From: Candidatus Woesearchaeota archaeon
Lineage (GTDB): Archaea > Nanobdellota > Nanobdellia > Woesearchaeales > UBA525
Direction of reading: 5' to 3'
Assembly (NCBI GenBank): GCA_027371725.1
Contig: DAHXMN010000001.1
Coordinates: forward strand, 400 to 64,399
DNA length: 64,000 nucleotides
Both the position numbers and the translations under genes were made by a program. Each line of letters opens with the position of its first letter. Position 1 is the first letter of the stretch. The notes beneath the pieces are model-generated. The model made no database searches, had not been told where the DNA came from, and saw only the letters and a program-made list of their open reading frames with translations. Shown here piece by piece: positions 7,842 through 39,747 of this stretch.

Positions 7842-7979
7842 CCGCGGACGGACGCTCGCGACGATTATAAACGTTGCCTTTGAGGGTCGAGAACAGACGT
7901 CCCTTCTTCCGCAGTGACCCTGTCGACTGTGATCGGCCGAGGAGAGGTTTTATAAAACTCGCCGGGTCCACGCACCGTC

Positions 7980-8624: not shown

Positions 8625-8654
8625 AAAAGCCCTCCGGTCCCTCCACCGCTCCGC

Positions 8655-8727: not shown

Positions 8728-8731
8728 TTAT
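8715..8731. repeat. attL: 17-bp core CCGGGCGGGGCTATTAT overlapping the tRNA-Gln(CTG) 3' end
   Basis: An identical 17-mer recurs at 30614..30630, and a 14/17 degenerate copy at 36044..36060. Confidence 0.8.
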
Positions 8732-8904: not shown

Positions 8905-8909
8905 GCCTC

Positions 8910-11808: not shown

Positions 11809-11826
11809 GATTTTTGCCTCATCTTG

Positions 11827-16305: not shown

Positions 16306-16306
16306 G

Positions 16307-18331: not shown

Positions 18332-18660
18332 CCGACCAGGTATTGCACGACGAGCGGTGCAACCCAGATGATGATGAGGCCCACCACGATGTACCCCGCC
18401 ATGGTCTTGGCGGACTCGCGTTTGGCCGTGTCGTCGCCGCTCATGATGAACGTGACACCCGCAAAGACGAGGAACAGCACGGCAAGGACCGTGGCCGCGT
18501 ACTTCACGAAGTTGTACACCTTCATCACAGGGCTCAATATCTGGTCGAACGTCGCTTGGTCCTGGGGCGAGATCGTCTGATTGAACTCGACCGCCATGAC
18601 GAGCGGCGTGATGCTCAGGAAGAGCATCACCAACAGCAAGGCAGTTTTCATTCTTGGCAC
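18328..18660 (-). CDS. pilin-like small membrane protein (VirB2/TrbC-like candidate)
   Basis: 110 aa with a signal peptide plus two hydrophobic helices. Overlaps the upstream gene (ATGA). Confidence 0.5.
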   Translation of the reverse strand: MPRMKTALLLVMLFLSITPLVMAVEFNQTISPQDQATFDQILSPVMKVYNFVKYAATVLAVLFLVFAGVTFIMSGDDTAKRESAKTMAGYIVVGLIIIWVAPLVVQYLVG

Positions 18661-18838
18661 CTCCGCGCTTCGAATGCCTCGAGACTACCGTACTTCCACT
18701 CGATGAAGGTGCGGCACGACTCGCACAGCTCCTCCTCGGGTGTGTCCTTCAGGCATAAGACGCAAATCATGCTAGAACAAGGCGCCTGAAAAGCCTAGAA
18801 AGGATGTCGGAGAACGTATTACATCGTTTGATGTTAGC

Positions 18839-20533: not shown

Positions 20534-20651
20534 TCTGATCCACTAATTCTTAAACGATCTCCTAATCCCTTTATTTAAATGTTGTCACAGTCGATTCATT
20601 TTTAAAGATGCTGAGAATCAGAAGCCGCATCTGACGCAAGTGTTTGGACGC

Positions 20652-21563: not shown

Positions 21564-23545
21564 CTCCGCACCTCAGTCACACCATGGCTCATCACGAAAC
21601 GAGATTCCTGAGCTATACGCTTAGAAAGCAAGTCTCTGATTGTGGCAGTATATTCCTGATCCTTCATCAGAAGGACAACCTGTGTTCCTTTGAGATAGTC
21701 TGGCAACTTCCGCGCCACATTCTCTCTTTGTTCATTATCTATGTTTGCTAGGGGCGTGTCGATGAATACTGGGAACTTGAATCCGGAGACCTCGCTCAAA
21801 GCAGCAATGAATGACAACAATAGGAGCTGTTTCGGACCACTTGCGAGATTGTGCATCCAGTTTGTTCCTTTGCCGTCGGTAAGTCTGAGGTCATAATCAT
21901 GATTGATTGTGAACTCAGTATATTTCTCTTTGTCCCAATGGAGTGTTTTGAAGTATTCCCATGTCTTCTCTTGCACTTGTTCTCTGACTTCCTGTAGAAT
22001 CTCTACCTCAATTTTATTCAGTGCATTTGATGCGCGATCAATAAACTCAGCGGTGACCTTCTTTCTTTCTCCGCCTTTCTTCTTCACACCTTCTTGATTG
22101 AGACTTTGTCGTAGTTGACTCAGTTGTCCAGTTCGTAGATTTATGGCGGCAGTCAATCTCGAGACGGAAGCTATTTGAGACTCTCTGTTTGTCATAAGAG
22201 ACTCGCGTTGATTTGTCTGTTGAATTATGTCGTCTTCTTTAGTGTCCTTAAGATTCTTTGATATTTCTTGAAGATCTTTATCGTGCTTTTTATTAAGTTC
22301 CACTAGTTTTTCGAGTTTCTTGTTCAGAGTGGCTATCTCGTTGAGTGATTGAGGGATTTCGCGCTCTAGAATATCGGTGATTCTGAATTTACCTTCTGAA
22401 AGCGTGGCCTTGAATTCATTGAAATTATTCTCTCTAATCTTTTCTTTTAAGAGAGTCACACATTCTTGGTCGTGAGTAGTGTTGAGCGTCCTCCCGCAGA
22501 CGCATTTCTTTTGTCGCAACAGTTCTTCAAGATATTTGTTGTCGATATTTGGCTGGAACTTATCCCTCTCTAATTCAGCATTTATTAGATTGATAAAGTT
22601 CTGCAACGCACCAGATGCGATGGCCAGAGGAGCGGATGATATGGCAATCGTTCTCAACTGTTTCTTGATTTGATCTATTTCTTGGTTATTGGAAGCAATC
22701 TTTTCACGGATATCGCGTTCTTGTCTCGCCCATTCTCGTATGAGTGGGATGTTATAGTCAGAGAGGAACTTCTCGATTCTGTCAATCTCCTCCTTTGCTT
22801 TGGCGATTTCTCCTTTTCGAGTTTCAATAGCTTCCGTATTTCTCGCTATATACTCCTCCGCCTCTTCAATCTCATGGTTCAATTTCGCCATTCCTGCATC
22901 GTATTCGTCGTCTTTATCGGAGGTCCATATCTGATCTCGGACTTTCTGGAGATGCTCTATCGCCAGCTTGACCTGTTTGATTTGAGAGGTTCTTTCGATT
23001 GCTTGGCGGATGTTCTCGTTGTTATTGAATGAGAAGTGCTTTTCGAGCTTCTCACCTTCAAACATGAAAAAGAGGTGGATTTCCCTCGGCAATATGCTGT
23101 TTATTACATTAGTAAAATTATACTCGGGAACGGGTCTACAGTCGTTCTTTTCCCATTCCATTATTGAGCCGGTCGGCTCTTTTAAGATGTGCATCTTGTT
23201 ATTGAGCTTCTGGTACATTGCATCCCGTTTAATCACATAAATGGGCAAATCCGTTTCATCGTCGTTCAAGGTGATTTCAACATAGACGCTATCAATCTCC
23301 TTCTCCTTCATATCGTGTTGTCTGGCGACAGTAAATGCGGGCAAAGTGTGGTCATGACCTGAACTGGTCTCCTCACCATACAAACACCAAGCAATAGCTG
23401 AGAGGAAAGTGGTCTTACCAACGTCAGATTTAGCTTCAATCACAGAAAACTTGTTTTTTGCCTCTTTCTTGAACGTTACAACTATTGGCTTCTCCGGATT
23501 GCTGAACGGACGGAAGTTCTTGAGTTTGATTTCAGAGATCCACAT
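21554..23545 (-). CDS. DndD/SbcC/SMC-like coiled-coil ATPase
   Basis: 663 aa. N-terminal Walker A KSDVGKTTFLSAIAWCLYGE, a long coiled-coil middle, and a C-terminal ABC-type signature/Walker B region ...FPVFIDTPLANID. Confidence 0.7.
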   Translation of the reverse strand: MWISEIKLKNFRPFSNPEKPIVVTFKKEAKNKFSVIEAKSDVGKTTFLSAIAWCLYGEETSSGHDHTLPAFTVARQHDMKEKEIDSVYVEITLNDDETDLPIYVIKRDAMYQKLNNKMHILKEPTGSIMEWEKNDCRPVPEYNFTNVINSILPREIHLFFMFEGEKLEKHFSFNNNENIRQAIERTSQIKQVKLAIEHLQKVRDQIWTSDKDDEYDAGMAKLNHEIEEAEEYIARNTEAIETRKGEIAKAKEEIDRIEKFLSDYNIPLIREWARQERDIREKIASNNQEIDQIKKQLRTIAISSAPLAIASGALQNFINLINAELERDKFQPNIDNKYLEELLRQKKCVCGRTLNTTHDQECVTLLKEKIRENNFNEFKATLSEGKFRITDILEREIPQSLNEIATLNKKLEKLVELNKKHDKDLQEISKNLKDTKEDDIIQQTNQRESLMTNRESQIASVSRLTAAINLRTGQLSQLRQSLNQEGVKKKGGERKKVTAEFIDRASNALNKIEVEILQEVREQVQEKTWEYFKTLHWDKEKYTEFTINHDYDLRLTDGKGTNWMHNLASGPKQLLLLSFIAALSEVSGFKFPVFIDTPLANIDNEQRENVARKLPDYLKGTQVVLLMKDQEYTATIRDLLSKRIAQESRFVMSHGVTEVRSWN

Positions 23546-23732
23546 CTTTGTGCTCCTTCTGGCTGTATCCGTCCGCCCACTGTTTGTAGGAGTCGGTGTA
23601 TCTTCCTTTGGCCGCCGAGAGGTTCTTTAATTCATTCTCAAGAACATCGAGCAGAAACGATTTCAAATGCTCGCTTTCGTCTAATTCGGAGATTTTCCTT
23701 GTGATTATCTTATTCAGTTCTGATCGTCTCAT
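23532..23732 (-). CDS. small helical protein (66 aa) embedded in the operon
   Basis: Its start overlaps the helicase stop (ATGA at 23729-23732) and its 3' end overlaps the SMC start. Confidence 0.45.
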   Translation of the reverse strand: MRRSELNKIITRKISELDESEHLKSFLLDVLENELKNLSAAKGRYTDSYKQWADGYSQKEHKDVDL

Positions 23733-25873
23733 TGTGGTACGCTCAACAGGGCTTGATATTTAGTCAGATTATTCTTTACGGTCAAGGGGTTCCTTGCTGA
23801 CTGCAGGAACTCGTCAACCCTCAATAACTCCCGCCTTAACGCTGAACGCTCTGACTCCGATATTTTTAAAGGTATTCTTTCCCAAGGGAAAACCAAGACG
23901 TCATGTATAATCGAGAACTCTTTTCCCGGCGAGCGTCTCAGTATTCTCCCTCTTCTTTGAATAAACTCTACCGGATTCCCGCTACTCGCCAAAATAATTG
24001 CTCTTTCAATTCCTGGGACGTCGATACCTTCATCTAGGACCTTCATAGCAATCACTGCTTGATATTTGTCCTCCTGGAACAACCTTATGATTTCTTGCCT
24101 ATATTCAAGGCTTTCTTCATGAGTTATCTGATGAGCCCTAATTTTCTTGTCGTGCAGTATCTCCTTGACCCGTTCTATCTGTTTATCGGAACAATAGATT
24201 AGTGTTCGTTTAATATCTGGTATTGAAGAAAGGATTTTCTCAAAAGCAGCCCATTTTGCCTCAGCATTAACGAGTATTCTTGACCGCTCAAGAATCATCA
24301 TGAATATTTTATCGTCGACTTTTCCCTTGTTGGCGTGTATTGCTCGTGCTATCCGAGTTGAAAGCGACTCATATTTTTCTCTTTCTTCATCAGTCAATAT
24401 AGCAATTTCCGCATAATATTCGTATTCGGTCAGAAACTCAGGTATGGCCTGTTTCATGCTGAATTCAAAACATATCCCTTCAAAGTAGTCGAGTAGTTCC
24501 TGTGTCCCTTCGGGGTCCATGTATATCTCTGGTGTGGCGCTCAGACCAAGACGACCGATAAACTCCGGAAGCATCCCTTTCCTTGTCTCAGGTGCCCACG
24601 CGTGATGTACTTCGTCGCAGACCAATAGCTTGGTCTCTTCAGTTTTATTCACGAAATCTATTAAATCCTTCGAACAGAATGAATCATATGTTGCTACAGC
24701 AAAAAGATTCTCGGCTCTTCCTAGACGAAGCTTCAGAATCCCCGTCTTCAAGTCGGCAGCCCACACGGATTTGTTCTGCATGACTGGAATTATGTTTTTG
24801 AAACCTTCCGCCTCTAGGTTTTCTATCCATTGGGAGACGAGTAGCTGTGTTGGTGCAACAATCACTACCAACGACTTAGGATATCTTTTCAGGAAGGCGT
24901 CTATGGCGCGTAGAGCAGTGAATGTCTTTCCCGTTCCAGTCGCCATCTTCAATATGCCCTTAAAATTCTTCGACCAGTTCCTGATGGCCTCTTCTTGGTA
25001 CTCCCTGAGCTCCCTTCTCGAAGGTTCTTTCTGCTCCCGTCTAAATGAGTATCTCCCTTTGTACTCGTCCTTGGCTCTCCTCAGACAGTATTCTGAGAGC
25101 GTGTTGAATTCTTCTTCGGTCTTCGGTGATCGCTGTATTAGTTGTTTTTTGAAAGCATCACTAATCGGATAAACGCGCATATTCCCTGTCAAGTCATTCC
25201 AGAGCTCTTCGAAGTCCTCAAGATCGTGTTTTAGGTGTCGCTCTTTGTCGGATTCCACCCACCCTAGGTAGACGTGGAATTTTTCGTGGTTAAATAACCA
25301 TCCAGATGCGGTCTCGTTATCTGACCCGAAAAACTCAATCATGTTTCCGGAGGAATCTTCAAGAATGCCATATTTCTGGTGTTCTATTCCTTTGTTGCCA
25401 CCAGGAACTGCTATGCGAATTTCCAGACGACCACTTCTTACCATCCATCCAAGCATCTTTAGATGATCTTTCTTTAATTCATCTTCGCTGCAATCAATTT
25501 CGGTGATGATGCTCTTTTCAGCTTCACTGATTGCTCTTGCTATTGTCTCCGCGTCGACTTCACTCAGCTTCACACTCGTAATCAGTTGCATACGACCGCC
25601 ATTCTTGATGAACTCAGCCATCCCTTTTGCTGCTACGGCCAGAGAGCTAGAAGAGAAGAACCCTGAGACGCGCTTGTAGGTTACTGCCCGGGACAAAGCA
25701 GGAATATAGAATGAGTCCAGAACGTCTTCTTTCGCAGAGTCATAGACTCCTTTGCTTTCCAAGCCTAAATCCCTGAGGCTCATGCTCGAGCTAATTGATT
25801 CGCTTTTAAAAAGGTATCTCGATAAATTCCAGTTTACGCACACGTTCAACAGCAAAATGGGCGTATTTTGCAT
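23729..25873 (-). CDS. fusion of a phospholipase-D (HKD) nuclease domain and an SF2 helicase (ResIII/DEAH-like)
   Basis: HKD motif HQKYGILED. Helicase motif I ATGTGKTF, motif II LLVCDEVHHAW, motif III SATP and motif VI QRRGRILRR. Confidence 0.75.
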   Translation of the reverse strand: MQNTPILLLNVCVNWNLSRYLFKSESISSSMSLRDLGLESKGVYDSAKEDVLDSFYIPALSRAVTYKRVSGFFSSSSLAVAAKGMAEFIKNGGRMQLITSVKLSEVDAETIARAISEAEKSIITEIDCSEDELKKDHLKMLGWMVRSGRLEIRIAVPGGNKGIEHQKYGILEDSSGNMIEFFGSDNETASGWLFNHEKFHVYLGWVESDKERHLKHDLEDFEELWNDLTGNMRVYPISDAFKKQLIQRSPKTEEEFNTLSEYCLRRAKDEYKGRYSFRREQKEPSRRELREYQEEAIRNWSKNFKGILKMATGTGKTFTALRAIDAFLKRYPKSLVVIVAPTQLLVSQWIENLEAEGFKNIIPVMQNKSVWAADLKTGILKLRLGRAENLFAVATYDSFCSKDLIDFVNKTEETKLLVCDEVHHAWAPETRKGMLPEFIGRLGLSATPEIYMDPEGTQELLDYFEGICFEFSMKQAIPEFLTEYEYYAEIAILTDEEREKYESLSTRIARAIHANKGKVDDKIFMMILERSRILVNAEAKWAAFEKILSSIPDIKRTLIYCSDKQIERVKEILHDKKIRAHQITHEESLEYRQEIIRLFQEDKYQAVIAMKVLDEGIDVPGIERAIILASSGNPVEFIQRRGRILRRSPGKEFSIIHDVLVFPWERIPLKISESERSALRRELLRVDEFLQSARNPLTVKNNLTKYQALLSVPQ

Positions 25874-26540
25874 CGAGTTCGCAACCGAGGAATTGTCTGC
25901 CTGTCTGGCGTGCCGCTACGGCTGTGCTGCCGACCCCCATGAATGGGTCTAAAACCACATCTCCGGGCTTGCTAGAGGCCTCTATGAGGCGTTTAAGCAC
26001 CGCCAGGGGTTTCTGAGTGGGGTGAACTGAGCCGCCTTCTGGGCTGCGGAGTCGTTCTGCCCCGGTCAGGATTGGGGTGATGAAGAGGTTCTTCATGGCC
26101 CCTTGGCTGGGGAAGTTGAAGGTAATCTTGTTGAGCTTGACCTTCTCGTTGACGGCGTAGACGATGTATTCGTTGGCGAAGACCCAGTTGGTCTTGCTCA
26201 GGCGGGGTGGCGGGTTGGTCTTGCTCCAAACGAGGAGGTTGCGGAAGAACCAGGCCTCCTGGAAGATGCGCATGTAGATGGGGATTTGTTCGGTGCTGCA
26301 GAACACGTAGATCTGCCCGGTCGGCTTCAGGACGCGCTTGAGCTCCTTCATGACCGGGACGGGGTCGAAGCCATAGTCCCAGTCGCCGAAGTCCTTCCGG
26401 ATATGCCGTCCATCGTAGACGAGGTTTTGTTTTCTGGAGATGTTGTAGGGTGGGTCGGTCACGACGAGATCGACGCTGTTGTCAGGCAGTTCTTTGAGAT
26501 ATTCGAGGCAATCCATGCAGGCGATGGTGTTCAGTTTCAT
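25806..26540 (-). CDS. beta-class DNA methyltransferase (N6-adenine or N4-cytosine; DPPY type)
   Basis: DLVVTDPPYNI near the N-terminus. Its 3' end overlaps the helicase start. Confidence 0.8.
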   Translation of the reverse strand: MKLNTIACMDCLEYLKELPDNSVDLVVTDPPYNISRKQNLVYDGRHIRKDFGDWDYGFDPVPVMKELKRVLKPTGQIYVFCSTEQIPIYMRIFQEAWFFRNLLVWSKTNPPPRLSKTNWVFANEYIVYAVNEKVKLNKITFNFPSQGAMKNLFITPILTGAERLRSPEGGSVHPTQKPLAVLKRLIEASSKPGDVVLDPFMGVGSTAVAARQTGRQFLGCELDAKYAHFAVERVRKLEFIEIPF

Positions 26541-26604
26541 GCCCTGTAACGGGTTGCACTTTCAGAAATTCGGGACTCGGAAAATGTACATCAAAAAAGA
26601 AGTT

Positions 26605-26736
26605 TTAGTCACGGCCCTCATTAGCACCATCTTCGAACCCGTCCTGGTAGAGCTTGTTTAGGACGGTGTCGAGCTCTTCCTTCGTCTTGGCCGTCTTGAC
26701 CGCTTTCCGATACCCCTGTAAGTACTTGTCCGCCAT
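26605..26736 (-). CDS. tiny conserved ORF (43 aa), copy 1
   Basis: MADKYLQGYRKAVKTAKTKEELDTVLNKLYQDGFEDGANEGRD. A 41/43-identical paralogue is at 33222..33353. Confidence 0.45.
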   Translation of the reverse strand: MADKYLQGYRKAVKTAKTKEELDTVLNKLYQDGFEDGANEGRD

Positions 26737-26748
26737 GTCATTCACCCC

Positions 26749-26877
26749 CTATTCTCGCAATAGATCGTCGAAATCGACGTAGTCATGCGGGTTCTCCACG
26801 TTCCGGAACTGGCGCAGCCGATCATCCCGGAAGAACCGCTTCCCTTTCATTTCCACTATTGGTAGTTGGGTTACCAT
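26749..26877 (-). CDS. tiny conserved ORF (42 aa), copy 1
   Basis: MVTQLPIVEMKGKRFFRDDRLRQFRNVENPHDYVDFDDLLRE. A paralogue with one substitution is at 33367..33495. Confidence 0.45.
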   Translation of the reverse strand: MVTQLPIVEMKGKRFFRDDRLRQFRNVENPHDYVDFDDLLRE

Positions 26878-27424
26878 AGGTTATCGCCTCCTTAGAAAGC
26901 CCGAGCCTGAACGAGGCGATTATTCTGTCTCGGAGAATGTATGACATCTGAAGCCACTGGTCAACCGCGCGCAGCGCATTTAAGCCGATCTCACCTTCTT
27001 CGTGAGTGGCGCTTCACATCCTCAAGGGCAACGGGAGGGCGCTCGATCACGACGTCGTCCGGTTCGCGTTAGCGTACACGCCATGCCTCCTCGTAGATTG
27101 TGCAGACGCGGCCGACCCATACCAACACCCAGACACAGATGTTGCGACGTTCCTTGCAGTTCATGTGGTTCAGGCGGAACTCCTGTACCGGCTCCGAGAC
27201 ATCCTCCGCGCCCTGCCGCAGACCGTGCGGCGGCTCGGCGTCAAACGTGTCGTCATCACGCAATTCACGCGCCTTTTCCATTATCACGATGAGGCGGAGA
27301 ACGCGGATATTTACGAGGAAGTGTGGCGGCGGATCGGCGAAGCTGCAAAGGAGCTCGACGTCGTTGTCGGCGTTCCGGAGGGATCAGTCCATGAGGCGTA
27401 TGCGGAACGCCTCGGAGGGTTAAG

Positions 27425-29831: not shown

Positions 29832-30469
29832 TAACGCCGATGAACGAGCTCGTCCAACGCTTCCGAGTAGAAGCACCCAGCAAAGAATGGAAAGCACGGT
29901 ACAACGCGGCACCCACGCAGGAACTCCTCATCATCCCCCAGGATTACCCTGAGAAGATCGTGGCGGCGCGATGGGGCCTCGTTCCGCATTGGGCGAAGGA
30001 CACGAGCATCGGCTACAAAATGATCAACGCCAAAGCAGAAACCCTCGCAGAAAAACCCTCCTACAAGCCCCTCCTCGGACAAAAACGGTGCCTCGTCCTC
30101 GCCGACGGGTTCTACGAATGGAAACACGTCGGCAAGACAAAAACCCCCTTCAGAATCACCAAGCCCGACGGCAAGGCATTCGCCTTTGCCGGTCTCTACG
30201 ACGACTGGAAGCACGACGGCGAAACCCTCCGCAGCTTCACCATCATCACCACCGAACCAAACCCAATCATGAAGCCGATTCACGACCGCATGCCAGCAAT
30301 CCTCCCCGCAGAAAAGGAGCAAGAATGGCTCACAGGCGAGTCAGCCTCCGCCCTCAAACTCCTCAAGCCATTTGCAGGCAAACTCGCCCTACAGCAAGTC
30401 TCGGAGAAAGTCAACATTCCCGCAAATGACGACCCATCCGTCCTCAAAGGACCGCAACTACTCCGATAG
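29810..30469 (+). CDS. SOS-response-associated peptidase (SRAP/YedK/HMCES family)
   Basis: N-terminal MCGRF (catalytic Cys2). About 220 aa with a family-like sequence throughout (…WGLVPHW…). Confidence 0.8.
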   Translation: MCGRFTLITPMNELVQRFRVEAPSKEWKARYNAAPTQELLIIPQDYPEKIVAARWGLVPHWAKDTSIGYKMINAKAETLAEKPSYKPLLGQKRCLVLADGFYEWKHVGKTKTPFRITKPDGKAFAFAGLYDDWKHDGETLRSFTIITTEPNPIMKPIHDRMPAILPAEKEQEWLTGESASALKLLKPFAGKLALQQVSEKVNIPANDDPSVLKGPQLLR

Positions 30470-30474
30470 ATAGT

Positions 30475-30630
30475 CATTCTCCGAGGCAAGCTAACAAACA
30501 ATCGCAGACATTCTCATGGCATGAACGAGAATTTTATAAACCGCATCACACCCATTCACACTAGCACGCTGGAGGACTGGTGGAGTCCTCTCGATACCGG
30601 GAACGGCTCACCGCCGGGCGGGGCTATTAT
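30475..30630. repeat. element right-end repeat A (about 155 bp) ending in the attR 17-mer (30614..30630)
   Basis: About 75% identical to 35900..36060. Contains catgaacgagaattttataaa, atcacacccattca and gagtcctctcgatac blocks. Confidence 0.7.
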
Positions 30631-30759
30631 CACTTTTGATGATTTCAAGGGGCTCTCTAAGATTTTCAGCCTGGATTCGATCAGAATAATCACTTCTTGG
30701 ATGGTCTGACAGCCATATTTGCGCAGAAGACGCTCTTTTTCCTGTTCGAGGAGATCCAT
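30556..30759 (-). CDS. paralogue of the integrase-downstream small ORF (spans attR)
   Basis: MDLLEQEKERLLRKYGCQTIQEVIILIESRL... is homologous to 8728..8904. Confidence 0.4.
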   Translation of the reverse strand: MDLLEQEKERLLRKYGCQTIQEVIILIESRLKILESPLKSSKVIIAPPGGEPFPVSRGLHQSSSVLV

Positions 30760-30868
30760 GCACTCGAAAGCCAACGTCCCGAGCCGGTTGTAGCCGTACC
30801 TCTCGAAGACGTGCTTGGGCATCGTGATTAAATTTATATAGGCCGTTAGATTTTATGTTCTTGGGGGG

Positions 30869-33019
30869 ATGTTCATGAAAGGTGCTGTCGTATCCATTGC
30901 GTTCTGTATCGCGATCGCATTGCTTCTGTTCGCGGATTCCGCGGCGGCGCTGAATACAGTGCCGATGCGGACGGTCACGGTTCTCCCGTCGACAATGCCT
31001 ATCCTGACGCTCAACACGACCAACACGAGCATCGCTCCGCGGCCGGTCTTCTTCGCGGCGACCACGACCCTGAGCCCGGCGGCCATCACCGCGGCGCTCG
31101 AGGCGCTCAAGACCGGACCGATGGTCTACGTCGCCGGCCGGCCGGCGCAGGTGATTGACTCCTCGGCACGCGAGGCCGTCGCCACCATACGTTCGGACGA
31201 GCCGGACAGCAGCATCCCGGCCATAGGGGTCTCGCCGGACGGGCAGTATGTCTACATCGCGATCGCCTGGTCGGTGACCGCGCAGGATTCGCTCGGCCCG
31301 TACAACGAGGCGCATTGCGCGGTCGTGCGCCTCAATGCCAGCACGCAGGTGCCGATCGACCATTTCTCCTTTGACTGGATCCGGCCGGAGCACATGGCGG
31401 TCGCGCCGGACGGCAAGGTCTATCTCGGCTACCAGGAAGCGAGATATCCTGACCATGCGGGCGTGGAGATCCTCGACTTCTCGCAGAAGAAGAGATGGTA
31501 TCTCACGTACGAGCAGGCCATGATCATGAACGTCTTCGCATTCTCGCCGGACGGCGGCCACGTCTACTACGCGGGCTGGTGGAGCTCTCCTGGGATCTAC
31601 GACCTCGATTGGAGCGTGAACAATGTCCACTACTACCCCCTGCCGGGGGACGACAGCGTCTCGGCAAGCTACACGAGATCCATCGCGGTCGGCGCCGGCG
31701 GCAGGATGGTCTACGCCGTCGTGAACCGGAACAAGGGCATCTTCGCGATGAACACGGAGGACAAGAACAAGCAGGTGATTCCGACGGACTACGTCCCGGT
31801 CACGCTCGCGACGTCTCCCGACAGGAGCACGCTCTACGTCATCGGCTATTTCTACAACCAGGACAACCAGCCGGTCTACGTCATGCACAAGTACACCGGC
31901 TTGAAGGCGGTCGGCCCGTTCTACACGAGCCAGCTCGACTACTCGGTCACGGACAAAGCGATGTTCTACACGACCGATGCCATGGACTACCTCACACCGA
32001 GCGAAGGCTATCCATCGTACATGGCCGTGACCGCTGACGGGAAATACGCCTACATCACGCTCGGGAAGGGCGACGGCGTCAGCGACGGGCACGGCAGCTC
32101 GGTCATGGTGTACGACCTCGAGTACCTGCATCAGGTCTCGGAGATCCCGGTCAAGAACGCGTACATGGACGTCGCCGCCTCGCCCGCGAAGATCCTCTTC
32201 ACGCCCGAGAACGAGCTTCAGCCCGACACGAACACCCCTGCGCCGGACGACCCTCACGCGTTCCTCGTCAAGAAGACCTACCCGGCGAACGGCTCCTACG
32301 CGAGCCTCTATCAAAAGGACTTCTTCAACGTCAACGCCATCTTCACGGCCAAGCTCGACAACATGACGGTGAGCAACGCCACGTTCACGGTTGCTGAGAA
32401 GTCCGGAACGCCGGTCGCCGGCAAGGTGAGCTCGGCGCAGAACATCGTCATCTTCATGCCGACGAGCCAGCTCAAGCCGAACACGGATTACGTCGCCACT
32501 ATCACCACAGGACTCAAGTCCGTCGACGGGTACGCGCTCGCCGCGCCGCTCCATTGGACGTTCACCACGAGGGCCGGCCTCATCGGGTTCACGAACCTTT
32601 CTATCGCGACGTCGAACGTGACGCTGATCCGGCCGTCACAGCCCAGGACCTTCCCCATCATCTTCCCGAACCAGACGAACGACCAATTAGACCCGTCGAA
32701 CCAACCCAACCAGACCATCCCTCAAACGAGTAATCCGATCGTCCCGCAGCAGCGGCAAGGAACCCTGCATGGCGGGGTCGATGGCGGCTCACAGACCGAC
32801 AGCGGCACGCCGAGCAACGCGCGAAACACCTCGCCATCGAAGAACGTCACGGCGTCGGCGAACCGGATCCCTCCCGCCGGAGGGGAGACAGTCCCCGCCA
32901 CGCTCAACGAGCGGCAGGACATCAACCGCATTAATCCGCAGCCCGAACCCCCGAACGCGAGCCCCGGTTTCCTCGGTCGTATCGCAGCCCTCTTACGGTC
33001 GCTTTTCGGGATGAAATGA
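30869..33019 (+). CDS. secreted YVTN-type beta-propeller repeat protein with an Ig-like domain, a Pro/Thr/Asn/Gln-rich linker and a possible PGF-CTERM-like tail
   Basis: Signal peptide. Repeats SPDGQYVYIA, APDGKVYLGY, SPDGGHVYYAG, SPDRSTLYVIGY and TADGKYAYITLG. C-terminus ...NASPGFLGRIAALLRSLFGMK. Confidence 0.65.
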   Translation: MFMKGAVVSIAFCIAIALLLFADSAAALNTVPMRTVTVLPSTMPILTLNTTNTSIAPRPVFFAATTTLSPAAITAALEALKTGPMVYVAGRPAQVIDSSAREAVATIRSDEPDSSIPAIGVSPDGQYVYIAIAWSVTAQDSLGPYNEAHCAVVRLNASTQVPIDHFSFDWIRPEHMAVAPDGKVYLGYQEARYPDHAGVEILDFSQKKRWYLTYEQAMIMNVFAFSPDGGHVYYAGWWSSPGIYDLDWSVNNVHYYPLPGDDSVSASYTRSIAVGAGGRMVYAVVNRNKGIFAMNTEDKNKQVIPTDYVPVTLATSPDRSTLYVIGYFYNQDNQPVYVMHKYTGLKAVGPFYTSQLDYSVTDKAMFYTTDAMDYLTPSEGYPSYMAVTADGKYAYITLGKGDGVSDGHGSSVMVYDLEYLHQVSEIPVKNAYMDVAASPAKILFTPENELQPDTNTPAPDDPHAFLVKKTYPANGSYASLYQKDFFNVNAIFTAKLDNMTVSNATFTVAEKSGTPVAGKVSSAQNIVIFMPTSQLKPNTDYVATITTGLKSVDGYALAAPLHWTFTTRAGLIGFTNLSIATSNVTLIRPSQPRTFPIIFPNQTNDQLDPSNQPNQTIPQTSNPIVPQQRQGTLHGGVDGGSQTDSGTPSNARNTSPSKNVTASANRIPPAGGETVPATLNERQDINRINPQPEPPNASPGFLGRIAALLRSLFGMK

Positions 33020-33044
33020 GCGAGATCATTTCGGTGCATAAGGA

Positions 33045-33165
33045 TGTTGTTGGGGATGCTGTATGGCTGGTCGGTCACGACGAGATCGACGCCGCTATTG
33101 GACAACTCCTTGAGATACTCTAGGCAATCCCTACAGGCGATGGTGTTCAGTTCCATGCCCTGCAA
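33045..33165 (-). pseudogene. 5' remnant of a beta-class MTase (DQPY instead of DPPY), truncated at the duplication boundary
   Basis: MELNTIACRDCLEYLKELSNSGVDLVVTDQPY is homologous to the N-terminus of 25806..26540. Homology stops at about 33057. Confidence 0.6.
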
Positions 33166-33221
33166 CGGGTTGCACTTTCAGAAATCCGGGACTCGGAAAA
33201 TGTACATCAAAAAAAGAAGTT

Positions 33222-33353
33222 TTAGTCACGACCCTCATTAGCACCATCCTCGAACCCGTCCTGGTAGAGCTTGTTCAGGACGGTGTCAAGCTCCTCCTTC
33301 GTCTTGGCCGTCTTGACTGCTTTCCGATATCCCTCAAGGTATTTATCAGCCAT
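33222..33353 (-). CDS. tiny conserved ORF (43 aa), copy 2
   Basis: MADKYLEGYRKAVKTAKTKEELDTVLNKLYQDGFEDGANEGRD. Confidence 0.45.
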   Translation of the reverse strand: MADKYLEGYRKAVKTAKTKEELDTVLNKLYQDGFEDGANEGRD

Positions 33354-33366
33354 GGCGTTCACCCCC

Positions 33367-33495
33367 TTATTCTCGCAGCAGATCGTCGAAATCGACGTAG
33401 TCATGCGGATTCTCCACGTTCCGGAACTGGCGCAGCCGATCATCCCGGAAAAACCACTTTCCCTTCATCTCCACTATCGGTAGTTGGGTCACCAT
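33367..33495 (-). CDS. tiny conserved ORF (42 aa), copy 2
   Basis: MVTQLPIVEMKGKWFFRDDRLRQFRNVENPHDYVDFDDLLRE. Confidence 0.45.
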   Translation of the reverse strand: MVTQLPIVEMKGKWFFRDDRLRQFRNVENPHDYVDFDDLLRE

Positions 33496-33616
33496 AGGTT
33501 ATCGCCTCCTGAGAAAGAACAAGGACGCGGGAGAGCATTAGTGTTGCTCGGAGATTGTATGACGAAGGGTGTTTTAGGCGAAAAATTGATAAATATTAGC
33601 GTATTCTAATATTCTT

Positions 33617-33913
33617 ATGGATGAGATGTATCAGCGTCATGCCGAGCTGTGCAAGGTGTTCGCCAGCCCCACCCGACTGGAGATCGTGGATCTCTTGCGA
33701 AGCAAAGAACTCTCCGTCACGGCGCTTGTGGAAAAGACCAAGATGGGTCAGGCCAACATCTCACAGCATCTTGCGATTATGAAGTACAAAGGGATTGTGA
33801 CCTCGCGTCGGAGCGGGACGAACGTCTACTATGCGCTCGCAGATTCCCGGATTGTGGCGGCGTTCGACATCATCTGCGAGGTGCTCGCGAAGAAGCGAAT
33901 GATCGGAGCGTGA
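33617..33913 (+). CDS. ArsR/SmtB-family transcriptional regulator
   Basis: FASPTRLEIVDLL ... ANISQHLAIMKYKGIV HTH. Confidence 0.85.
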   Translation: MDEMYQRHAELCKVFASPTRLEIVDLLRSKELSVTALVEKTKMGQANISQHLAIMKYKGIVTSRRSGTNVYYALADSRIVAAFDIICEVLAKKRMIGA

Positions 33914-33918
33914 ACAGC

Positions 33919-34206
33919 ATGGAGAAAGACCAACAAATCCTCGTGTGGGTGCTCATCGGCGTCGTGGCGCTCCTCCTGCTCGGCAGCGGGACGATGATGG
34001 GCGGGTATGGCATGATGGGCTACGGCATGGGCATCGGATTCCTCTTCATGCTCCTTTTCATCGGCGTCGTCATCTGGCTCATCGTCACCCTCGTCAATGC
34101 CGCTAAGAAGGATGAGACGACCCCCTTGACTGTGCTCAAGAAGCGGTACGCCGCAGGAGAGATCTCCAAGAAGCAGTATGCGACGATGAAAAAAGAGTTG
34201 GAGTGA
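33919..34206 (+). CDS. SHOCT-domain small membrane protein
   Basis: Two TM helices followed by LKKRYAAGEISKKQYATMKKEL (SHOCT). Confidence 0.65.
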   Translation: MEKDQQILVWVLIGVVALLLLGSGTMMGGYGMMGYGMGIGFLFMLLFIGVVIWLIVTLVNAAKKDETTPLTVLKKRYAAGEISKKQYATMKKELE

Positions 34207-34209
34207 ACG

Positions 34210-34608
34210 GTGCGACTGATGAACCCTGACGAGTTCTCCTACGCGGTCGAGACAGAGAAGAGTTTCGATGACGCCGTGATCGCGGTGCTCAGATCGGTGG
34301 AACAGCGAGGATGGGCCCTCTTCCAAGTCTACGATATCAAAGAGCGCATGGCGGCCAAAGGATTCACGCACCCGCCACTGAAAATTATTGAGCTCTGCGC
34401 GGCCAAGCACGCGAACCAGCTTCTCAAACAGAACAGGCTCGTATCCCTGTGCATGCCCTGCAAGATCAACGTGCTCCAGGACGGCGCGACGGTACGCATC
34501 GTCACCCTGAAACCCGCCATGATGACGCAGATTTTCCCCGGCATCAGCTTGGAGGACGCGAAGAACATCGAGAAAGACGTTATCGAGATCGTCAACGGGG
34601 CAAGGTGA
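34210..34608 (+). CDS. DUF302-family protein
   Basis: 132 aa with a DUF302-like pattern (...LCMPCKINVLQDGATVRI...). Confidence 0.55.
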   Translation: MRLMNPDEFSYAVETEKSFDDAVIAVLRSVEQRGWALFQVYDIKERMAAKGFTHPPLKIIELCAAKHANQLLKQNRLVSLCMPCKINVLQDGATVRIVTLKPAMMTQIFPGISLEDAKNIEKDVIEIVNGAR

Positions 34609-34612
34609 ACTC

Positions 34613-34936
34613 ATGAACATCGGTATCATCCTCAACACGAACGACGCGGAAACCTGCTGGAACTGCTTCCGATTCGCCAACGAAGCCCGTGCACGCCACG
34701 ACGTGAAGGTCTTCCTCCTCGGCAAAGGGGTAGAGCTCGACAACGTCCAGGACGCGAAGTTCCCCCTCCTCCAAGCCATGATCAAGAAGTTCACGACGAA
34801 CAACGGGACGATTCTCGCCTGTGGCACCTGCCTCAAACTGCGCGACAAGCCCGGAAGCGAGATATGTCCCGTCTCAACGATGGCCGAACTCCTCCGGCTC
34901 GTCGAGGAATCAGAGCGAATCATCACTTTCGGTTAG
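34613..34936 (+). CDS. DsrE/DsrF-like (sulfur-relay/peroxiredoxin-like fold) family protein
   Basis: 107 aa with GTILACGTCLKLR. Confidence 0.55.
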   Translation: MNIGIILNTNDAETCWNCFRFANEARARHDVKVFLLGKGVELDNVQDAKFPLLQAMIKKFTTNNGTILACGTCLKLRDKPGSEICPVSTMAELLRLVEESERIITFG

Positions 34937-34996
34937 ATTGGTCCTTCTAGCAAACATTCGTGAATCTTTATAAGCGGTTGTTGCCGTCATCGGTGC

Positions 34997-35887
34997 ATGT
35001 CCCACCATTGGGGGTATGTCTACGCGCTTGGAGCGGCGTTGCTCTTTGGCGTGAGCGCGACGCTTAACAAGCTCGTGCTTGCAACGGTGCACCCGCTCAT
35101 CGTCTCCGCAATCATCTACGGTTGCGCAGGACTTGTGCTTGGCGCGGTGCGGTTCTCCCCACTCTATCCTCTCGTCGCGTCGTCGCTGCACCTGAGACAT
35201 GAGTCTGTGCGGCTTACGAGGCGTGATTGGGTGCTCATCGTCCTGATCGCCATATTTGGTGCGGTGCTCGGACCGCTCTTATTCCTCTCTGGCTTGCAGG
35301 TTGCCTCAGCTTCGAGCGCGTCCTTGCTGCTTAACGCCGAGGTTCTCTTCACCGCCTTGCTCGCGATGCTTTTCTTGCGTGAGCGTGCGCGTCCGCGTGA
35401 GTACGTCGCGCTCGTCCTGCTCTTTCTCGGTGCGGTCGTCGTCACGACGAACCTTCAGTTCGGCGGTGCGAGCATGGCGGGAAGCTTGCTCATCGTCGCT
35501 GGCACGTTCTGCTGGGCGGTCGACAACACGCTGAGCAAGAAACTGAGCATTGAGAGCGATGTGATGAAGGTCGCGGCACTCAAAGGCCTCATCGGCAGCG
35601 CCATCCTGCTCGTCCTCGCGTTCTTCCTCGGCCTCCCGCTCACGATTCCGCCGCTCGCGATCCCGTATCTGCTCTTCGTCGGCTGCTTGAGCATCGGCGC
35701 GTCCTTGCTCCTGTTCCTGTCGGCGATGCGCATCATCGGTTCGATGCGCACCGTCGCGATCTTCGCGACTTCTTCGCTTTTCGGCGTCCTCGCCGCGTTT
35801 TTCCTCCTTCACGAGACGGTCTCGTTCGTGCAACTCGGAGCGGGAGCCGTGATGATCTACGCCGTTTACTTGCTAGCCAATAAATGA
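34997..35887 (+). CDS. EamA/DMT-family transporter (10 TM)
   Basis: Duplicated EamA domains. Confidence 0.8.
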   Translation: MSHHWGYVYALGAALLFGVSATLNKLVLATVHPLIVSAIIYGCAGLVLGAVRFSPLYPLVASSLHLRHESVRLTRRDWVLIVLIAIFGAVLGPLLFLSGLQVASASSASLLLNAEVLFTALLAMLFLRERARPREYVALVLLFLGAVVVTTNLQFGGASMAGSLLIVAGTFCWAVDNTLSKKLSIESDVMKVAALKGLIGSAILLVLAFFLGLPLTIPPLAIPYLLFVGCLSIGASLLLFLSAMRIIGSMRTVAIFATSSLFGVLAAFFLLHETVSFVQLGAGAVMIYAVYLLANK

Positions 35888-35899
35888 CGGACGCTTTGT

Positions 35900-36060
35900 A
35901 AAACATTCTCCGAGACAAGCTAATGCGCTCTCGAGGACTTTCGAATAGCATGAACGAGAATTTTATAAATGGTATCACACCCATTCATACCGGCGCCGCA
36001 GGAGGAATCGTAGAGTCCTCTCGATACTCAGAACGGCTCAGCGCCGGGCGGGGTCATTCT
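35900..36060. repeat. element right-end repeat B ending in the degenerate att (CCGGGCGGGGtCATTcT, 36044..36060)
   Basis: About 75% identical to 30475..30630. Confidence 0.65.
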
Positions 36061-36072
36061 TAGTGAGCGTTT

Positions 36073-36549
36073 TCACCTCGCTGCCTTCTTCACGAGGGCC
36101 GCGATTCGCTTCTCGTCCGTCGGCGTCAGTTCCGTCAGCGCGTAGGCGGTCGGCCACATCCTGTCCTCGTCGAGATTCGCTTTGTCGCTGAAGCCGAGCG
36201 TCGCGTACCGTGCCTTGAACTTCGCCGCGTCCTGGAAGAAGCAGAGGATCTTGCCGTCCTTGGCGTACGCGGGCATGCCGTACCAGAGCCGCGGCGTCAG
36301 CGACGGCGCGCTCTTCATGACGAGGCTGTGGATCCGCTCGCCCAGGACGCGATCAGTCCCTTTCATCGCGGCGATCCTCGCGAGGACGGCTTGCTCTCCC
36401 TCCCCTGCTCCTTTCATCTCCTGGATGCGCTCCCGCATCGCGGCCCGTTCCTCGGCAGTGAATCCTCCGTTCCCGGTCGGTTTGGCCATGTGGTTCGTCC
36501 CGCACCCGTGTTGTCCCTTCTTTTTATCATTCTTGTCCTTGTCCCTCAA
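36073..36549 (-). CDS. DUF1801/YdhG-like protein
   Basis: ...[32 protein letters not shown]... The start may be the internal MAKPTG. Confidence 0.55.
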
Positions 36550-36674
36550 ACTTCCCTTGATGCGGGCTGCTTGCCGGCCGATCGCCAGGATTCATCGGTT
36601 CCGGAGACGTCTCGGCTGCCGCGGCCGGGCTATCCGCCCTTCCAGCATCATCCACCGCCCGGCGCTCCATGCGC

Positions 36675-39455
36675 TCACGCGGTCGCGGCGTCGTGGCTTG
36701 CGGCTGTCCGCGCGCGCCGCCGCTTCGCGGCCGTCACGCCTTCGTGGATGGCGAGGAAGAGCAGCGCCCCGCCGAACGCGCAGCCCCAGTCCTGGAGCCT
36801 GAGCGGCGCCATGTGCAGGAAGGCGTTGAAGAGCGGGACGTACACCAACGCCAGGACGAGGAGGAAGGAGATGGCGAAGCCCCAGAGGAGGCGTTTGTTG
36901 GACCAGAGGTACGGGCTGAAGACCGATTCGTCGTCGTCCACCCGCTTCGCGAGCAGGTTCGCGAACGAGATGAGGACGAGCGTCACGTAGGTGAGCGTGG
37001 TCGCTTCCGCGTAGAGGATGGTGTCGGTCTGGATGTGCAGGGGAGAGACCCCGTTCCGGGAGAAGATGAAGAGGAAGTTCACGAAGGCGATCAGCCCCAT
37101 GAGGAAGCCGGTCCAGACCATGTTCCTGAACGTGGGCCCGTTCAGGATGTGCTCGTCAGGGTCGCGCGGGCGCCGCGTCATGGTTTCCTTCTGCGAAGGG
37201 TCCCAGGTCAGGAACGTGACGGGGAGCAGCTGGCCGATGAGGTCGACGGAGAGGATCTGGAGCGTCAGCATGGCGAGAGGGATGCCGAAGAAGGCGCTCG
37301 CCGCGAGGCTCAGGAGGACGACGGTGAGCTCGCCGGTGTTCGTCGTCAGCGAGGAGCGGACCGTCTTCGTGATGTTCTGGAAGATGGTGCGTCCTTCGCG
37401 TATCGCCGTCACGAGCGTCCCGATGCTGTCGTCCTGGAGGACGATCTCCGACGACTCCTTCGCCACTTCCGTCCCGGTCCGGCCCATGGCGACGCCGATG
37501 TCCGCCTTCTTGAGGGCTGGCGCGTCGTTCACCCCGTCGCCCGTCACCGCCACCACCTTGTCCGACCGCTTGAGGAGGCTGACGATGCGCAGCTTGTCCT
37601 CGGGCGAGGTCCGGGCGAAGATGAGGCCGTCCTTCTCGAGCGTGTGGATGAGGCTGGCGTCCGACATCGCGCTCAGGTCAGCGCCGGTGATGACGGTGCA
37701 TCTCCCTTCCGCGTCTCCGACGCCTATCCGTTTCGCGATCGCCTCGGCGGTGGGGGCGAAATCGCCGGTGATGATGATGACGCGTATGTGCGCCCTTTCC
37801 GCGACCGCCAGGGCTTCCTTGACGTCTTCCCGCGGAGGGTCGAGCATGGCCGCCATCCCGAGGAAGACGAGGTCCCTCTCGGCGTCTCTCATGGATGTCG
37901 GCACCGCCTGCGAGTCGAGCTCGCGGTAGGCGAGCGCGATGTTGCGGTACGCCGAGGACGCGAACTCCTCTTCCTTCCCCTTGAGGAACGCCTTGTCCTC
38001 CTCGGTGAGGGGGCGGATGCGTGCGCCGTCCCAGATGCGGGAAGACTGCTCGAGGATGCTCTGCGGGGCCCCTTTCGCGTAGAGGATGAAGCGTCCGTCC
38101 CTGCGGCGGACGGAGGACATGCGCTTGCGCGTGGCGTCGAACGCGAACTCCTTTATTTCCGGGTAGCGCTTGTCCATGTCGCCGGGCTTCAGGCCGGCTT
38201 TCTCGCCCAGCGTTATGAGCGCGGCCTCGGTCGGGTCCCCGATCGAGTACCAGTCCGGGTGCTCCTCGTCCGGCGGAGAGACCCTCGCGTTCGACGCGAA
38301 CACCCCGGTCTCGAAGAAGATCCTGTACCGTTCCTTCTCCATGGGTTTCCCGGTTCTCGTCTCGATCTCGCCCTCGGGCCTGTACCCGATGCCCGTCACC
38401 TCGAACTCGTCCTCGCCGATGAGGATCCGCTGGACGGTCATCTCGTTCTTCGTCAGGGTCCCCGTCTTGTCGGTGCAGATGATGTGCGTCGAGCCGAGCG
38501 TCTCCACGGACGAGAGCCTCTTGACGATCGCCTTCTTCCTCGCCAGCCGCGACGCGGCTAGGGAGAGCGCGATGGATACCTCGGCGGGCAGCCCCTCGGG
38601 CACCATGCAGGCGGCCACGCTCACCGAGAAGAGGAACGCTCCCTGCAAGGTGAAATGGATGAGGAGGGCGATGCCGAAGAGCACCGAGGCGATGGCGAGC
38701 GTCACGATGGTCAGCCGCTTCGCGAGGTTGTTCATCTCCTTCTGCAGGGGGGAAAGCCCGTCGGAGGTGCTCTGGCTCAGGTGCGCGATGCGTCCGATCT
38801 CCGTCTGCATGCCTGTGTGGATGACGATGCCGACGGCGTTGCCCGTGGCGACGGTCGTCCCCATGAATGCGATGTTGTTCCGGTCGCCGAGGAGCACGTC
38901 CCCTCCGATCTCGTGGGTGAACTTCCGCGTCGGGTTGGATTCCCCGGTCAGGGCGAAATCGTTCGTCGAAAGCTCGTGCTCCTCGAAGAGACGCACATCC
39001 GCGGGGACCGCGTCGCCCTCTTCCAGCTTGACGATGTCGCCCGGGACGAGGTCCTCGCTGTGGATCTCCTTGACCTGCCGGTCCCTGATGACTTTCGCCT
39101 CCTCGGTGATCATCATCTTCAGGGAGTTGATGAGCCGTTCCGCCTTGTACTCCTGGAAGAAACCGATGATCGCGTTGAGCGCGACGATGAGGAACATGAC
39201 CGTGGCGCTCCGGTAGTCGTCCATGTAGATGGCGAGGGCGCCCGCCACGAGGAGGACGATGACGAGGAGGTCCTTGAACTGACGCAACACCCTGAGAACG
39301 ACCGATTCCCCCTTCACCGGGGAGAGCCGGTTCTTGCCGTAGAGATCCAGCCGACTGCTCGCTTCCTTCTCTGAGAGCCCTTCCTGGCGTGATCGCAAGA
39401 CGTCGAACGCCCTGTCAGCAGGGTACTGGTAATACGGGATGGTGGGGTCGTCCAT
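36675..39455 (-). CDS. cation-transporting P-type ATPase (type II, Ca2+/Mg2+-like)
   Basis: ICTDKTGTLT phosphorylation motif, TGDGVNDAPALKKADIGVAMG and 10 TM helices. Confidence 0.9.
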   Translation of the reverse strand: MDDPTIPYYQYPADRAFDVLRSRQEGLSEKEASSRLDLYGKNRLSPVKGESVVLRVLRQFKDLLVIVLLVAGALAIYMDDYRSATVMFLIVALNAIIGFFQEYKAERLINSLKMMITEEAKVIRDRQVKEIHSEDLVPGDIVKLEEGDAVPADVRLFEEHELSTNDFALTGESNPTRKFTHEIGGDVLLGDRNNIAFMGTTVATGNAVGIVIHTGMQTEIGRIAHLSQSTSDGLSPLQKEMNNLAKRLTIVTLAIASVLFGIALLIHFTLQGAFLFSVSVAACMVPEGLPAEVSIALSLAASRLARKKAIVKRLSSVETLGSTHIICTDKTGTLTKNEMTVQRILIGEDEFEVTGIGYRPEGEIETRTGKPMEKERYRIFFETGVFASNARVSPPDEEHPDWYSIGDPTEAALITLGEKAGLKPGDMDKRYPEIKEFAFDATRKRMSSVRRRDGRFILYAKGAPQSILEQSSRIWDGARIRPLTEEDKAFLKGKEEEFASSAYRNIALAYRELDSQAVPTSMRDAERDLVFLGMAAMLDPPREDVKEALAVAERAHIRVIIITGDFAPTAEAIAKRIGVGDAEGRCTVITGADLSAMSDASLIHTLEKDGLIFARTSPEDKLRIVSLLKRSDKVVAVTGDGVNDAPALKKADIGVAMGRTGTEVAKESSEIVLQDDSIGTLVTAIREGRTIFQNITKTVRSSLTTNTGELTVVLLSLAASAFFGIPLAMLTLQILSVDLIGQLLPVTFLTWDPSQKETMTRRPRDPDEHILNGPTFRNMVWTGFLMGLIAFVNFLFIFSRNGVSPLHIQTDTILYAEATTLTYVTLVLISFANLLAKRVDDDESVFSPYLWSNKRLLWGFAISFLLVLALVYVPLFNAFLHMAPLRLQDWGCAFGGALLFLAIHEGVTAAKRRRARTAASHDAATA

Positions 39456-39747
39456 GACTCGTCATCCTCAGGCGCGGATGCATGCGCAGGCCGTCATGAC
39501 CCATCGGTTCGGCCAGAGGGTATTTAAATGGTTCTATTCCTGTCCTTACTGGCTGCACGCCTCGCGGATAGTGACGCCGTCTCTTCTTCGTCGTCGAGGA
39601 TTCGTCGACGGATCATCACTCTTGCGGCGCAAGGCGATGTTCATGGCCGAGGCAATCTCATGCGATCGTATTCTTGGCCGGAGGTCTCTCGCCGCCATCC
39701 TCCTCCCCGCCAGAAGAACCGCTGTTGACCGGCGGAAGGGTCCATCC

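Follow-up and report, generated by a model that had tools for sequence, protein, structure and literature searches.

We analysed a 64,000-nucleotide stretch of archaeal DNA (contig DAHXMN010000001.1 of assembly GCA_027371725.1, Candidatus Woesearchaeota archaeon; hereafter the window), in which a tRNA-Gln gene with the anticodon CUG is followed by two related elements in tandem. Element 1 (E1), next to the tRNA, resembles an integrative and conjugative element (ICE), and element 2 (E2), beyond it, is a shorter remnant without an integrase. Copies of a 17-nt attachment (att) core mark the tRNA end, the junction between the elements and the far end of E2. The target and the element boundaries are the following, with strands given as + or -:

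8655-8727, +, tRNA-Gln(CUG), called by ARAGORN and Rfam (RF00005, 54.7 bits); the intact integration target
8715-8731, +, att core copy 1, CCGGGCGGGGCTATTAT, 17/17; attL of E1
8728-30630, E1, ICE-like, intact, 21.9 kb, bounded by perfect 17-nt direct repeats
8728-8904, -, E1 small open reading frame (ORF), 58 aa, downstream of the integrase and directed toward the tRNA; TAA stop in the core
8910-10178, -, E1 tyrosine integrase, 422 aa, intact; adjoins attL, directly upstream of the small ORF
30475-30630, +, right arm A with core copy 2; attR of E1 joined to the left end of E2
30614-30630, +, att core copy 2, CCGGGCGGGGCTATTAT, 17/17
30631-36060, E2, remnant, 5.4 kb, integrase-less and distal to the tRNA
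35904-36060, +, right arm B with degenerate core copy 3; attR of E2
36044-36060, +, att core copy 3, CCGGGCGGGGTCATTCT, degenerate, 14/17

The 17-mer CCGGGCGGGGCTATTAT consists of the final 13 bases of the tRNA-Gln(CUG) gene and the 4 bases that follow. All three cores share the + strand, i.e. stand in direct orientation, and the first lies within the intact tRNA. Allowing up to 3 mismatches, the window contains 4 matches to the core against 0.29 expected, and at least 4 were obtained in 0/100 shuffles; the fourth match, at 3215, falls inside a transporter gene of the host, and we regard it as fortuitous. The right arms are homologous to each other, with 80.7% identity over 150 nt (30475-30623 and 35904-36053; blastn, E 3e-33). 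An earlier note on this DNA had put their identity at about 75%, with a core at the end of each and a degenerate one in B, and over its somewhat longer intervals (30475-30630 and 35900-36060) we obtained 77.6%, or 125/161 columns. The bases TCATTCT (36054-36060), which make core 3 degenerate, are also the first bases of arm A (30474-30480); the identity may be coincidental or may have been left by a further rearrangement.

A self-comparison of the window, the check that the earlier note had proposed, revealed similarity beyond the 17-mer: with blastn, positions 30400-36100 and the rest of the window have exactly three similarity blocks and nothing else in common. The E2 small ORF matches that of E1 with 82% identity over 62 nt (30700-30761 and 8845-8906; E 5e-11), and the 0.5-kb module that the note had seen in both elements is 87% identical over 513 nt (33051-33563 and 26435-26945; E 3e-179). 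In all, E1 and E2 have four homologous blocks, namely the small ORF, the 0.5-kb module, a short motif and the 150-nt right arm. These are colinear and have the same orientation in the two elements, the order being core, small ORF, methylase, 43-aa ORF, 42-aa ORF, motif, non-homologous cargo, motif, arm and core. The distance from the small ORF to codon 35 of the methylase is about 17.5 kb in E1 versus 2.3 kb in E2. The features concerned are:

25806-26945, -, E1 operon comprising the 42-aa and 43-aa ORFs with a full-length N6_N4 methylase; 26435-26945 is common to E2
30556-30822, -, E2 small ORF, reading toward the core; ATG at 30759 as the start of the homologous N-terminal part
30869-33019, +, gene for a secreted protein of 716 aa with a Big_5 domain (Pfam), at the E2 deletion junction
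33052-33156, -, N6_N4 methylase remnant, the first 35 codons of 244; catalytic DPPY changed to DQPY
33222-33353, -, E2 43-aa ORF, intact, one amino acid different from E1
33367-33495, -, E2 42-aa ORF, intact, one amino acid different from E1
33547-33562, -, motif TCATACAATCTCCGAG, bordering the module on its upstream side and paired in inverted orientation with the beginning of arm B; E1 counterpart at 26929-26944
33617-35887, +, E2 cargo: ArsR, SHOCT membrane protein, DUF302, DsrE-like protein and EamA transporter (Pfam, NCBIfam)

E2 thus retains a degenerate small ORF, the 42-aa and 43-aa ORFs, a cargo cassette of its own and the right arm of the attachment site. The paralogous small ORFs that had been described as reading toward the att sites (8728-8904 and 30556-30759) do so and have the translations given in the note, and the E1 copy follows the integrase as stated, at a spacing of 6 nt. 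In E2 the ORF retains the N-terminal 34 residues, of which 23/34 are identical to E1, and has lost the conserved C-terminal ...VESSR(W/S)KK found in E1 and in two related loci, L067 and L002. In E1 and L067 the small ORF is terminated by the TAA of the core, and in L002 by a TGA just before it; the E2 copy is out of frame with this TAA, its native stop is gone, and it reads through the core into arm A. An alternative start at 30822 gives the E2 ORF a 21-codon N-terminal extension without an E1 counterpart. We considered this extension as a remnant of an integrase and rejected it, the gain in tblastn being negligible, the L002 frame containing a stop and a profile hidden Markov model (HMM) finding nothing.

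The absence of an integrase from E2, another claim of the note, is clear: there is no Pfam match, and the HMM of an 18-sequence integrase family gave a best E of 2 in a six-frame search of 30400-36200 versus 2.5e-174 for the E1 control. Pfam found no type IV secretion system (T4SS) or recombinase domains in E2 either, and the E2 DNA had no match in the plasmids or phages searched. The note had proposed that the older integrase was deleted; the integrase is indeed gone, but the loss is far larger, about 17.5 kb in E1 coordinates. Homology with E1 stops near 33046-33051, beside the stump of the methylase. Homologues of the neighbouring Big_5 gene, 36-53% identical, occur in ordinary chromosomal contexts of related archaea, with neighbours that include carbamoyl-phosphate synthase, DNA ligase, AspRS and PCNA, and the gene itself has a host-like GC content of 0.62; a host-type gene therefore sits at the E2 deletion junction. 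The cargo at 33617-35887 has no similarity to E1 (blastn).

The homologous blocks differ in how far they have diverged between E1 and E2. Nonsynonymous and synonymous divergence (dN and dS) were 0.020 and 0.58 for the 43-aa ORF, 0.010 and 0.43 for the 42-aa ORF, and 0.118 and 0.67 for the 35 codons of the methylase stub; for the N-terminus of the small ORF dN was 0.30 and dS was saturated. With dS of 0.43-0.58 in the module and saturation in the small ORF, E2 is a diverged relative of E1 and not a recent copy.

The short motif recurs more widely. At up to 1 mismatch, CATTCTCCGAG has 9 copies in the window versus 2.8 expected, all inside E1 or E2 (8940, 10311, 26576, 26929, 30400, 30475, 33192, 33547 and 35904). 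Inverted pairs, 26929(-)/30475(+) in E1 and 33547(-)/35904(+) in E2, flank the non-homologous cargo of the two elements, and E1/E2 homology ends and resumes at copies of the motif. TATA-like boxes stand roughly 12-30 nt upstream of the copies at the module edges. A role as operator, or as a boundary of cargo exchange, is conceivable for the motif.

To describe the attachment site we reconstructed attP by fusing arm A with the E1 left end. In the reconstruction, the core has GAGTCCTCT 22 nt to its left and the inverse of that sequence, AGAGGACTC, 14 nt to its right; an additional arm copy, GGAGGACT, pairs as a hairpin with the GAGTCCTCT copy. The right-hand inverted copy is preserved in L002 and L067. 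Next to the core it reads AGAGGACTC in E1 and L002 and, degenerate, AAGGGGCTC in E2. We read these features as putative sites of recombinase binding. The left end of E2, CACTTTT, is of the L002 type and not of the E1 type. The arms were also considered as structured RNA and rejected as such: there was no Rfam match, folding z-scores were between -0.8 and -1.4, the predicted structures differed and compensatory changes were absent.

The E1 integrase matched the PHROG_1 integrase with E 1.3e-12 and Pfam PF00589 with E 1.3e-4, under the gathering cut-off. Residues R198, K230, R309, H310, W332, Y340 and Y341 do not vary among 18 relatives, and in Y306-D-F-R309-H310 a tyrosine appears, on our reading, to replace the first histidine of the usual HxxR box. 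The relatives are 37-59% identical and almost all come from metagenome-assembled genomes of Woese-, Pace-, Nano- and Iainarchaeota; we found no match among the plasmid, phage or PDB sequences searched, and scans of IMG/VR matched neither the arm pattern nor the integrase. The ORF is uninterrupted and about 180 nt separate its stop from the core, so that the att site is outside the gene. Homologues of the small ORF follow the integrase in L002, L003 and L004, and the E1 and L067 copies have 88% amino acid identity (dN 0.06, dS 0.33); a homologue search with the small ORF yielded just one relative (P0002) apart from the query. We also considered, and dropped, a transfer of a DPANN-type integrase to a non-DPANN host, the only named homologue of the Big_5 protein being that of Candidatus Bilamarchaeum dharawalense (class Micrarchaeia, DPANN). 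The Big_5 matches point weakly to a high-GC DPANN archaeon as the host, in line with where the integrase family occurs. The P-type ATPase gene on the right flank is uninformative on taxonomy, and its named matches are candidate phyla radiation (CPR) bacteria.

The earlier note had suggested a survey of related genomes for alleles with one or two elements, and this recovered a second two-element array and a further E1-like element. L002 (contig CAZRXH010000009.1) has host genes 87% identical to window 6034-7883 and so comes from a related archaeon; its Bacteroidota label looks like a binning error. Its orthologous tRNA-Gln(CUG) contains an intron and begins an array (11595-18806) in which a 7-kb element X comes first and, past a 19-nt repeat from the tRNA end, an E1-like element follows. 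Element X has its own integrase (372 aa, PF00589), unrelated to that of E1, and the integrase of the E1-like element is 81% identical to that of E1 and is followed by the small ORF. The two-element array of L002 is independent of ours and occupies the orthologous tRNA-Gln. In L067, an E1-like integrase and the small ORF lie at an identical tRNA-Gln with a different host flank. Other candidates were discarded. None of the three loci with two matches to the tRNA end is an island: L092 has both copies in tRNA-like genes, and L108 and L129 have one copy in a tRNA-Gln(CUG) and the other not called; the tRNA of L139, considered as an orthologous site, is a tRNA-Glu.

The module common to E1 and E2 recurs at another tRNA. 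In L145, a close relative (contig JACWAN010000071.1 of GCA_014874255.1, 4510-8719), a segment 94% identical to window 36610-39587 abuts a full-length methylase together with the 43-aa ORF and an ORF of 41 aa that corresponds to the 42-aa one, directly beside a tRNA-Gln(UUG), and L100 has the same layout. The 3 kb common to L145 and the window carry the P-type ATPase gene only, and the flanks differ on both sides. The position of the methylase module in L145 and L100 makes both tRNA-Gln genes hotspots for this family of elements. The methylase operon is a recurring module, of which E2 keeps only a stump; the P-type ATPase gene may be a mobile cassette and the right flank of the array variable DNA.

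The contiguity of the array is given by the assemblies. A single ENA contig of 56 kb carries E1, E2 and the right flank, and that flank is also covered by a Logan contig that includes the right half of E2. The left-flank contig ends at 8728 and the contig with E1, E2 and the right flank begins at 8588: ENA contigs k141_1152544 and k141_1422496 overlap by exactly 141 nt (window 8588-8728) at the tRNA. As k was 141, the overlap indicates that the assembly graph branches at the 3' end of the tRNA, a hint that the sample contains more than one allele.

We consider it probable, at roughly 85%, that the locus holds two related integrative elements in tandem at the 3' end of tRNA-Gln(CUG), of which E2 is decayed and has lost its integrase. 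E2 would have integrated first, through a crossover of its attP with the 3' end of the tRNA, catalysed by a tyrosine recombinase. E1, with an attP of the same core, would later have entered the tRNA that E2 had reconstituted, which would place it between the tRNA and E2 and create the hybrid junction of arm A, core and E2 left end. Before or after this entry, an internal deletion in E2 would have removed everything from the 5' end of the small ORF to codon 35 of the methylase, in E1 coordinates the integrase, TFIIB, T4SS-like genes and defence genes, and the 2.2-kb host-type surface-protein gene would have come to occupy the junction. The earlier note had interpreted the repeats as successive integrations followed by deletion of the integrase; the tandem array and the decay are supported, and the order of events, like the timing of the deletion, is the part of this scenario that we can only infer. 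E2 would be immobile alone and could at most be excised in trans by the E1 integrase.

Several observations weigh against this reading, at least in its simplest form. The divergence between the elements is greatest in the small ORF, intermediate in the arms and smallest in the module, and blocks that diverged so unequally indicate that E1 and E2 are mosaics rather than simple siblings. The third core cannot simply be the displaced original end of the tRNA, given its 3/17 differences and the A1-C72 mismatch in the acceptor; as written it would give a defective acceptor end, and in our reading it is either mutated or never was a perfect site. The Big_5 gene is chromosomal in relatives and yet lies within E2, which calls for an extra step of capture or rearrangement. 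The chromosomal right boundary is not secure, as the ATPase segment has another context in L145. In addition, the pattern of an empty attB, with the tRNA end joined to the right flank, was not found in the JGI metagenomes, and the metagenome searches recovered no empty or single-element (E2-only) allele. Among the 69 metagenomic loci with the 28-nt tRNA 3' end, none had an E1-type integrase.

The degree to which E2 has lost its mobility can be viewed differently. Bacterial ICEs can decay into cis-mobilizable elements (CIMEs) that keep their att sites, and E2 could be a working counterpart, whose arm B and left end the E1 integrase would recognise and which it would cut out either without E1 or together with it as a composite, so that the E2 cargo travels along. 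Co-transfer of an ICE and a CIME is documented in bacteria (PMC5704250). In E2 the attL core is a perfect 17-mer, copies of CATTCTCCGAG are kept, and arm B retains all perfectly conserved blocks of arm A, including a copy of GAGTCCTCTCGATAC and the 12 bases CGCCGGGCGGGG. The arms are also 78-81% identical, compared with about 64% in our own neutral estimate from a module dS of about 0.5, and the 42-aa and 43-aa ORFs are intact and, by their dN/dS values, have been under strong purifying selection. However, that selection mostly pre-dates the decay, the attR core matches at only 14/17 positions, the inverted-repeat copy at the left end is degenerate, the conserved C-terminus of the small ORF is lost, and neither reads nor contigs gave evidence of an E2 or composite circle. 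If the crossover took place within CCGGGCGGGG, the degenerate third core could still work. On balance we regard a functional E2 as unlikely. Less likely again is the fuller proposal that E2 is a still-mobilisable archaeal CIME counterpart with a stress cassette and a captured Big_5 gene, a surface-protein gene that is chromosomal across the clade, in which CATTCTCCGAG serves as a site of cargo exchange or in shared regulation by machinery that E1 encodes.

It is similarly doubtful that the array arrived in one piece, as a preformed E1+E2 composite or as one element of 27 kb that contained an att-like site internally, integrated once via core 3 as its attR. Whole composites are known to be transferred after accretion in bacteria (PMC5704250), E1 and E2 are contiguous on one contig, and the missing E2-only allele would fit; on the other hand, cores 1 and 2 are perfect and core 3 is degenerate, as expected from a recent E1 event in an older array, decay is seen in E2 and not in E1, and the L002-type left end of E2 suggests separate lineages. 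We give the least weight of all to an origin of the shared blocks by segmental duplication or gene conversion in the chromosome, or by chimeric assembly, which is very improbable. The source is a metagenome with a graph branch at the tRNA, and the module, 87-91% identical, is more similar than the other blocks, as gene conversion could cause. But block identities of 64-91% and dS of at least 0.4 rule out a recent duplication, repeats of 150-500 nt with 80-90% identity do not collapse at k = 141, and both the junction of arm A, core and E2 and that of E2 with the right flank lie within a single contig. Moreover, the block boundaries coincide exactly with the att cores, which is the expectation for site-specific recombination.

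The GC content of E1 is 0.51, against 0.62-0.65 in the flanks, and Pfam identified TFIIB, a 982-aa VirB4/TraC-like ATPase (P-loop_TraG, 6e-27), a TrbC/VirB2-like pilin (9e-12), a defence block, the N6_N4 methylase, PolB and SRAP. Besides the VirB4/TraC-like ATPase and the TrbC/VirB2-like pilin, the region 13357-18660 encodes a protein of 674 aa that matches pilins weakly; no coupling (VirD4-type) ATPase or relaxase was seen among the E1 ORFs scanned. Judged by these gene assignments, the VirB4/TraC-like and pilin genes together with TFIIB, PolB and SRAP suggest a conjugation-like apparatus in a probable DPANN host, and among the papers listed by a full-text literature search none was evidently about such an element. 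The defence block has a low GC content:

18839-25873, E1 defence block, GC 0.44: C5 methylase, Schlafen AlbA_2 protein, SMC-like ATPase and ResIII helicase

The window has a second tRNA-Gln (UUG, with an intron) at 683-783, called by Rfam and missed by ARAGORN. It is directly followed by a 1-kb islet with 36% GC (784-1833), in which an ORF with an AlbA_2/Schlafen domain (786-1175) begins 3 nt past the tRNA; a direct repeat flanking the islet was looked for and not found.

The preferred reading, a tandem array with a decayed distal member, has known parallels. In bacteria, accretion of ICEs and of integrative and mobilizable elements (IMEs) proceeds by integration, decay to a CIME that keeps its att sites and a second integration at the same site (PMC5704250), and the ICESt1/ICESt3-related islands of Streptococcus thermophilus are tandem accretions of an ICE and a CIME (PMC5704250, citing Pavlovic 2004 and Bellanger 2011). 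Our locus is similar in its single target gene and in the path of integration, decay and second integration, and differs in its archaeal host, an integrase family unrelated in sequence to characterised ones and the degenerate distal core. Like a CIME, E2 has lost its mobility genes, and the blocks colinear with E1 and the 35-codon methylase point to derivation by deletion. As to the att sites, the attL core of E2 is perfect with a degenerate neighbouring inverted repeat, and arm B is conserved with a core of 14/17. Archaeal elements with tyrosine recombinases also form arrays by re-use of att sites, and thaumarchaeal ICEs carry VirB4 and TFIIB homologues (PMC6563490). The direct repeats of the tRNA 3' end, the VirB4-type ATPase, the pilins, TFIIB and the tandem occupation are all found here as well, whereas the host lineage and integrase family are different, a VirD4-type ATPase is lacking among the ORFs scanned and one member of our array is a clear deletion derivative.

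Among archaeal integrases, the pNOB8-type gene stays intact on integration and the SSV-type gene is split by it. E1 agrees with the pNOB8 type, as its integrase gene is intact and adjoins attL with the att site outside the gene; being unsplit, it is not of the SSV type. It departs from the pNOB8 type in having no plasmid, phage or PDB match and relatives almost all from DPANN metagenome-assembled genomes. Decayed genomic islands at bacterial tRNA genes have cryptic or missing integrases, and E2 resembles these in its degenerate flanking repeats, lost integrase and retained accessory cargo. Unlike such islands, it has an intact sibling next to it, so that what was lost can be identified for each block.

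The route by which genomic islands are built up and decay here is already well known, and no new mechanism is revealed. The intact sibling allows a blockwise reading and makes the locus a clean worked example of the growth and decay of an archaeal island at a tRNA hotspot. For annotation, the genes in 30631-36060 are best regarded as island-borne and the methylase fragment as a pseudogene. If E2 were mobilisable, the integrase and T4SS-like apparatus of E1 would move host chromosomal genes between DPANN archaea. More generally, the E1/E2 locus delimits an ICE-like element and the att site of an integrase family seen almost only in DPANN.

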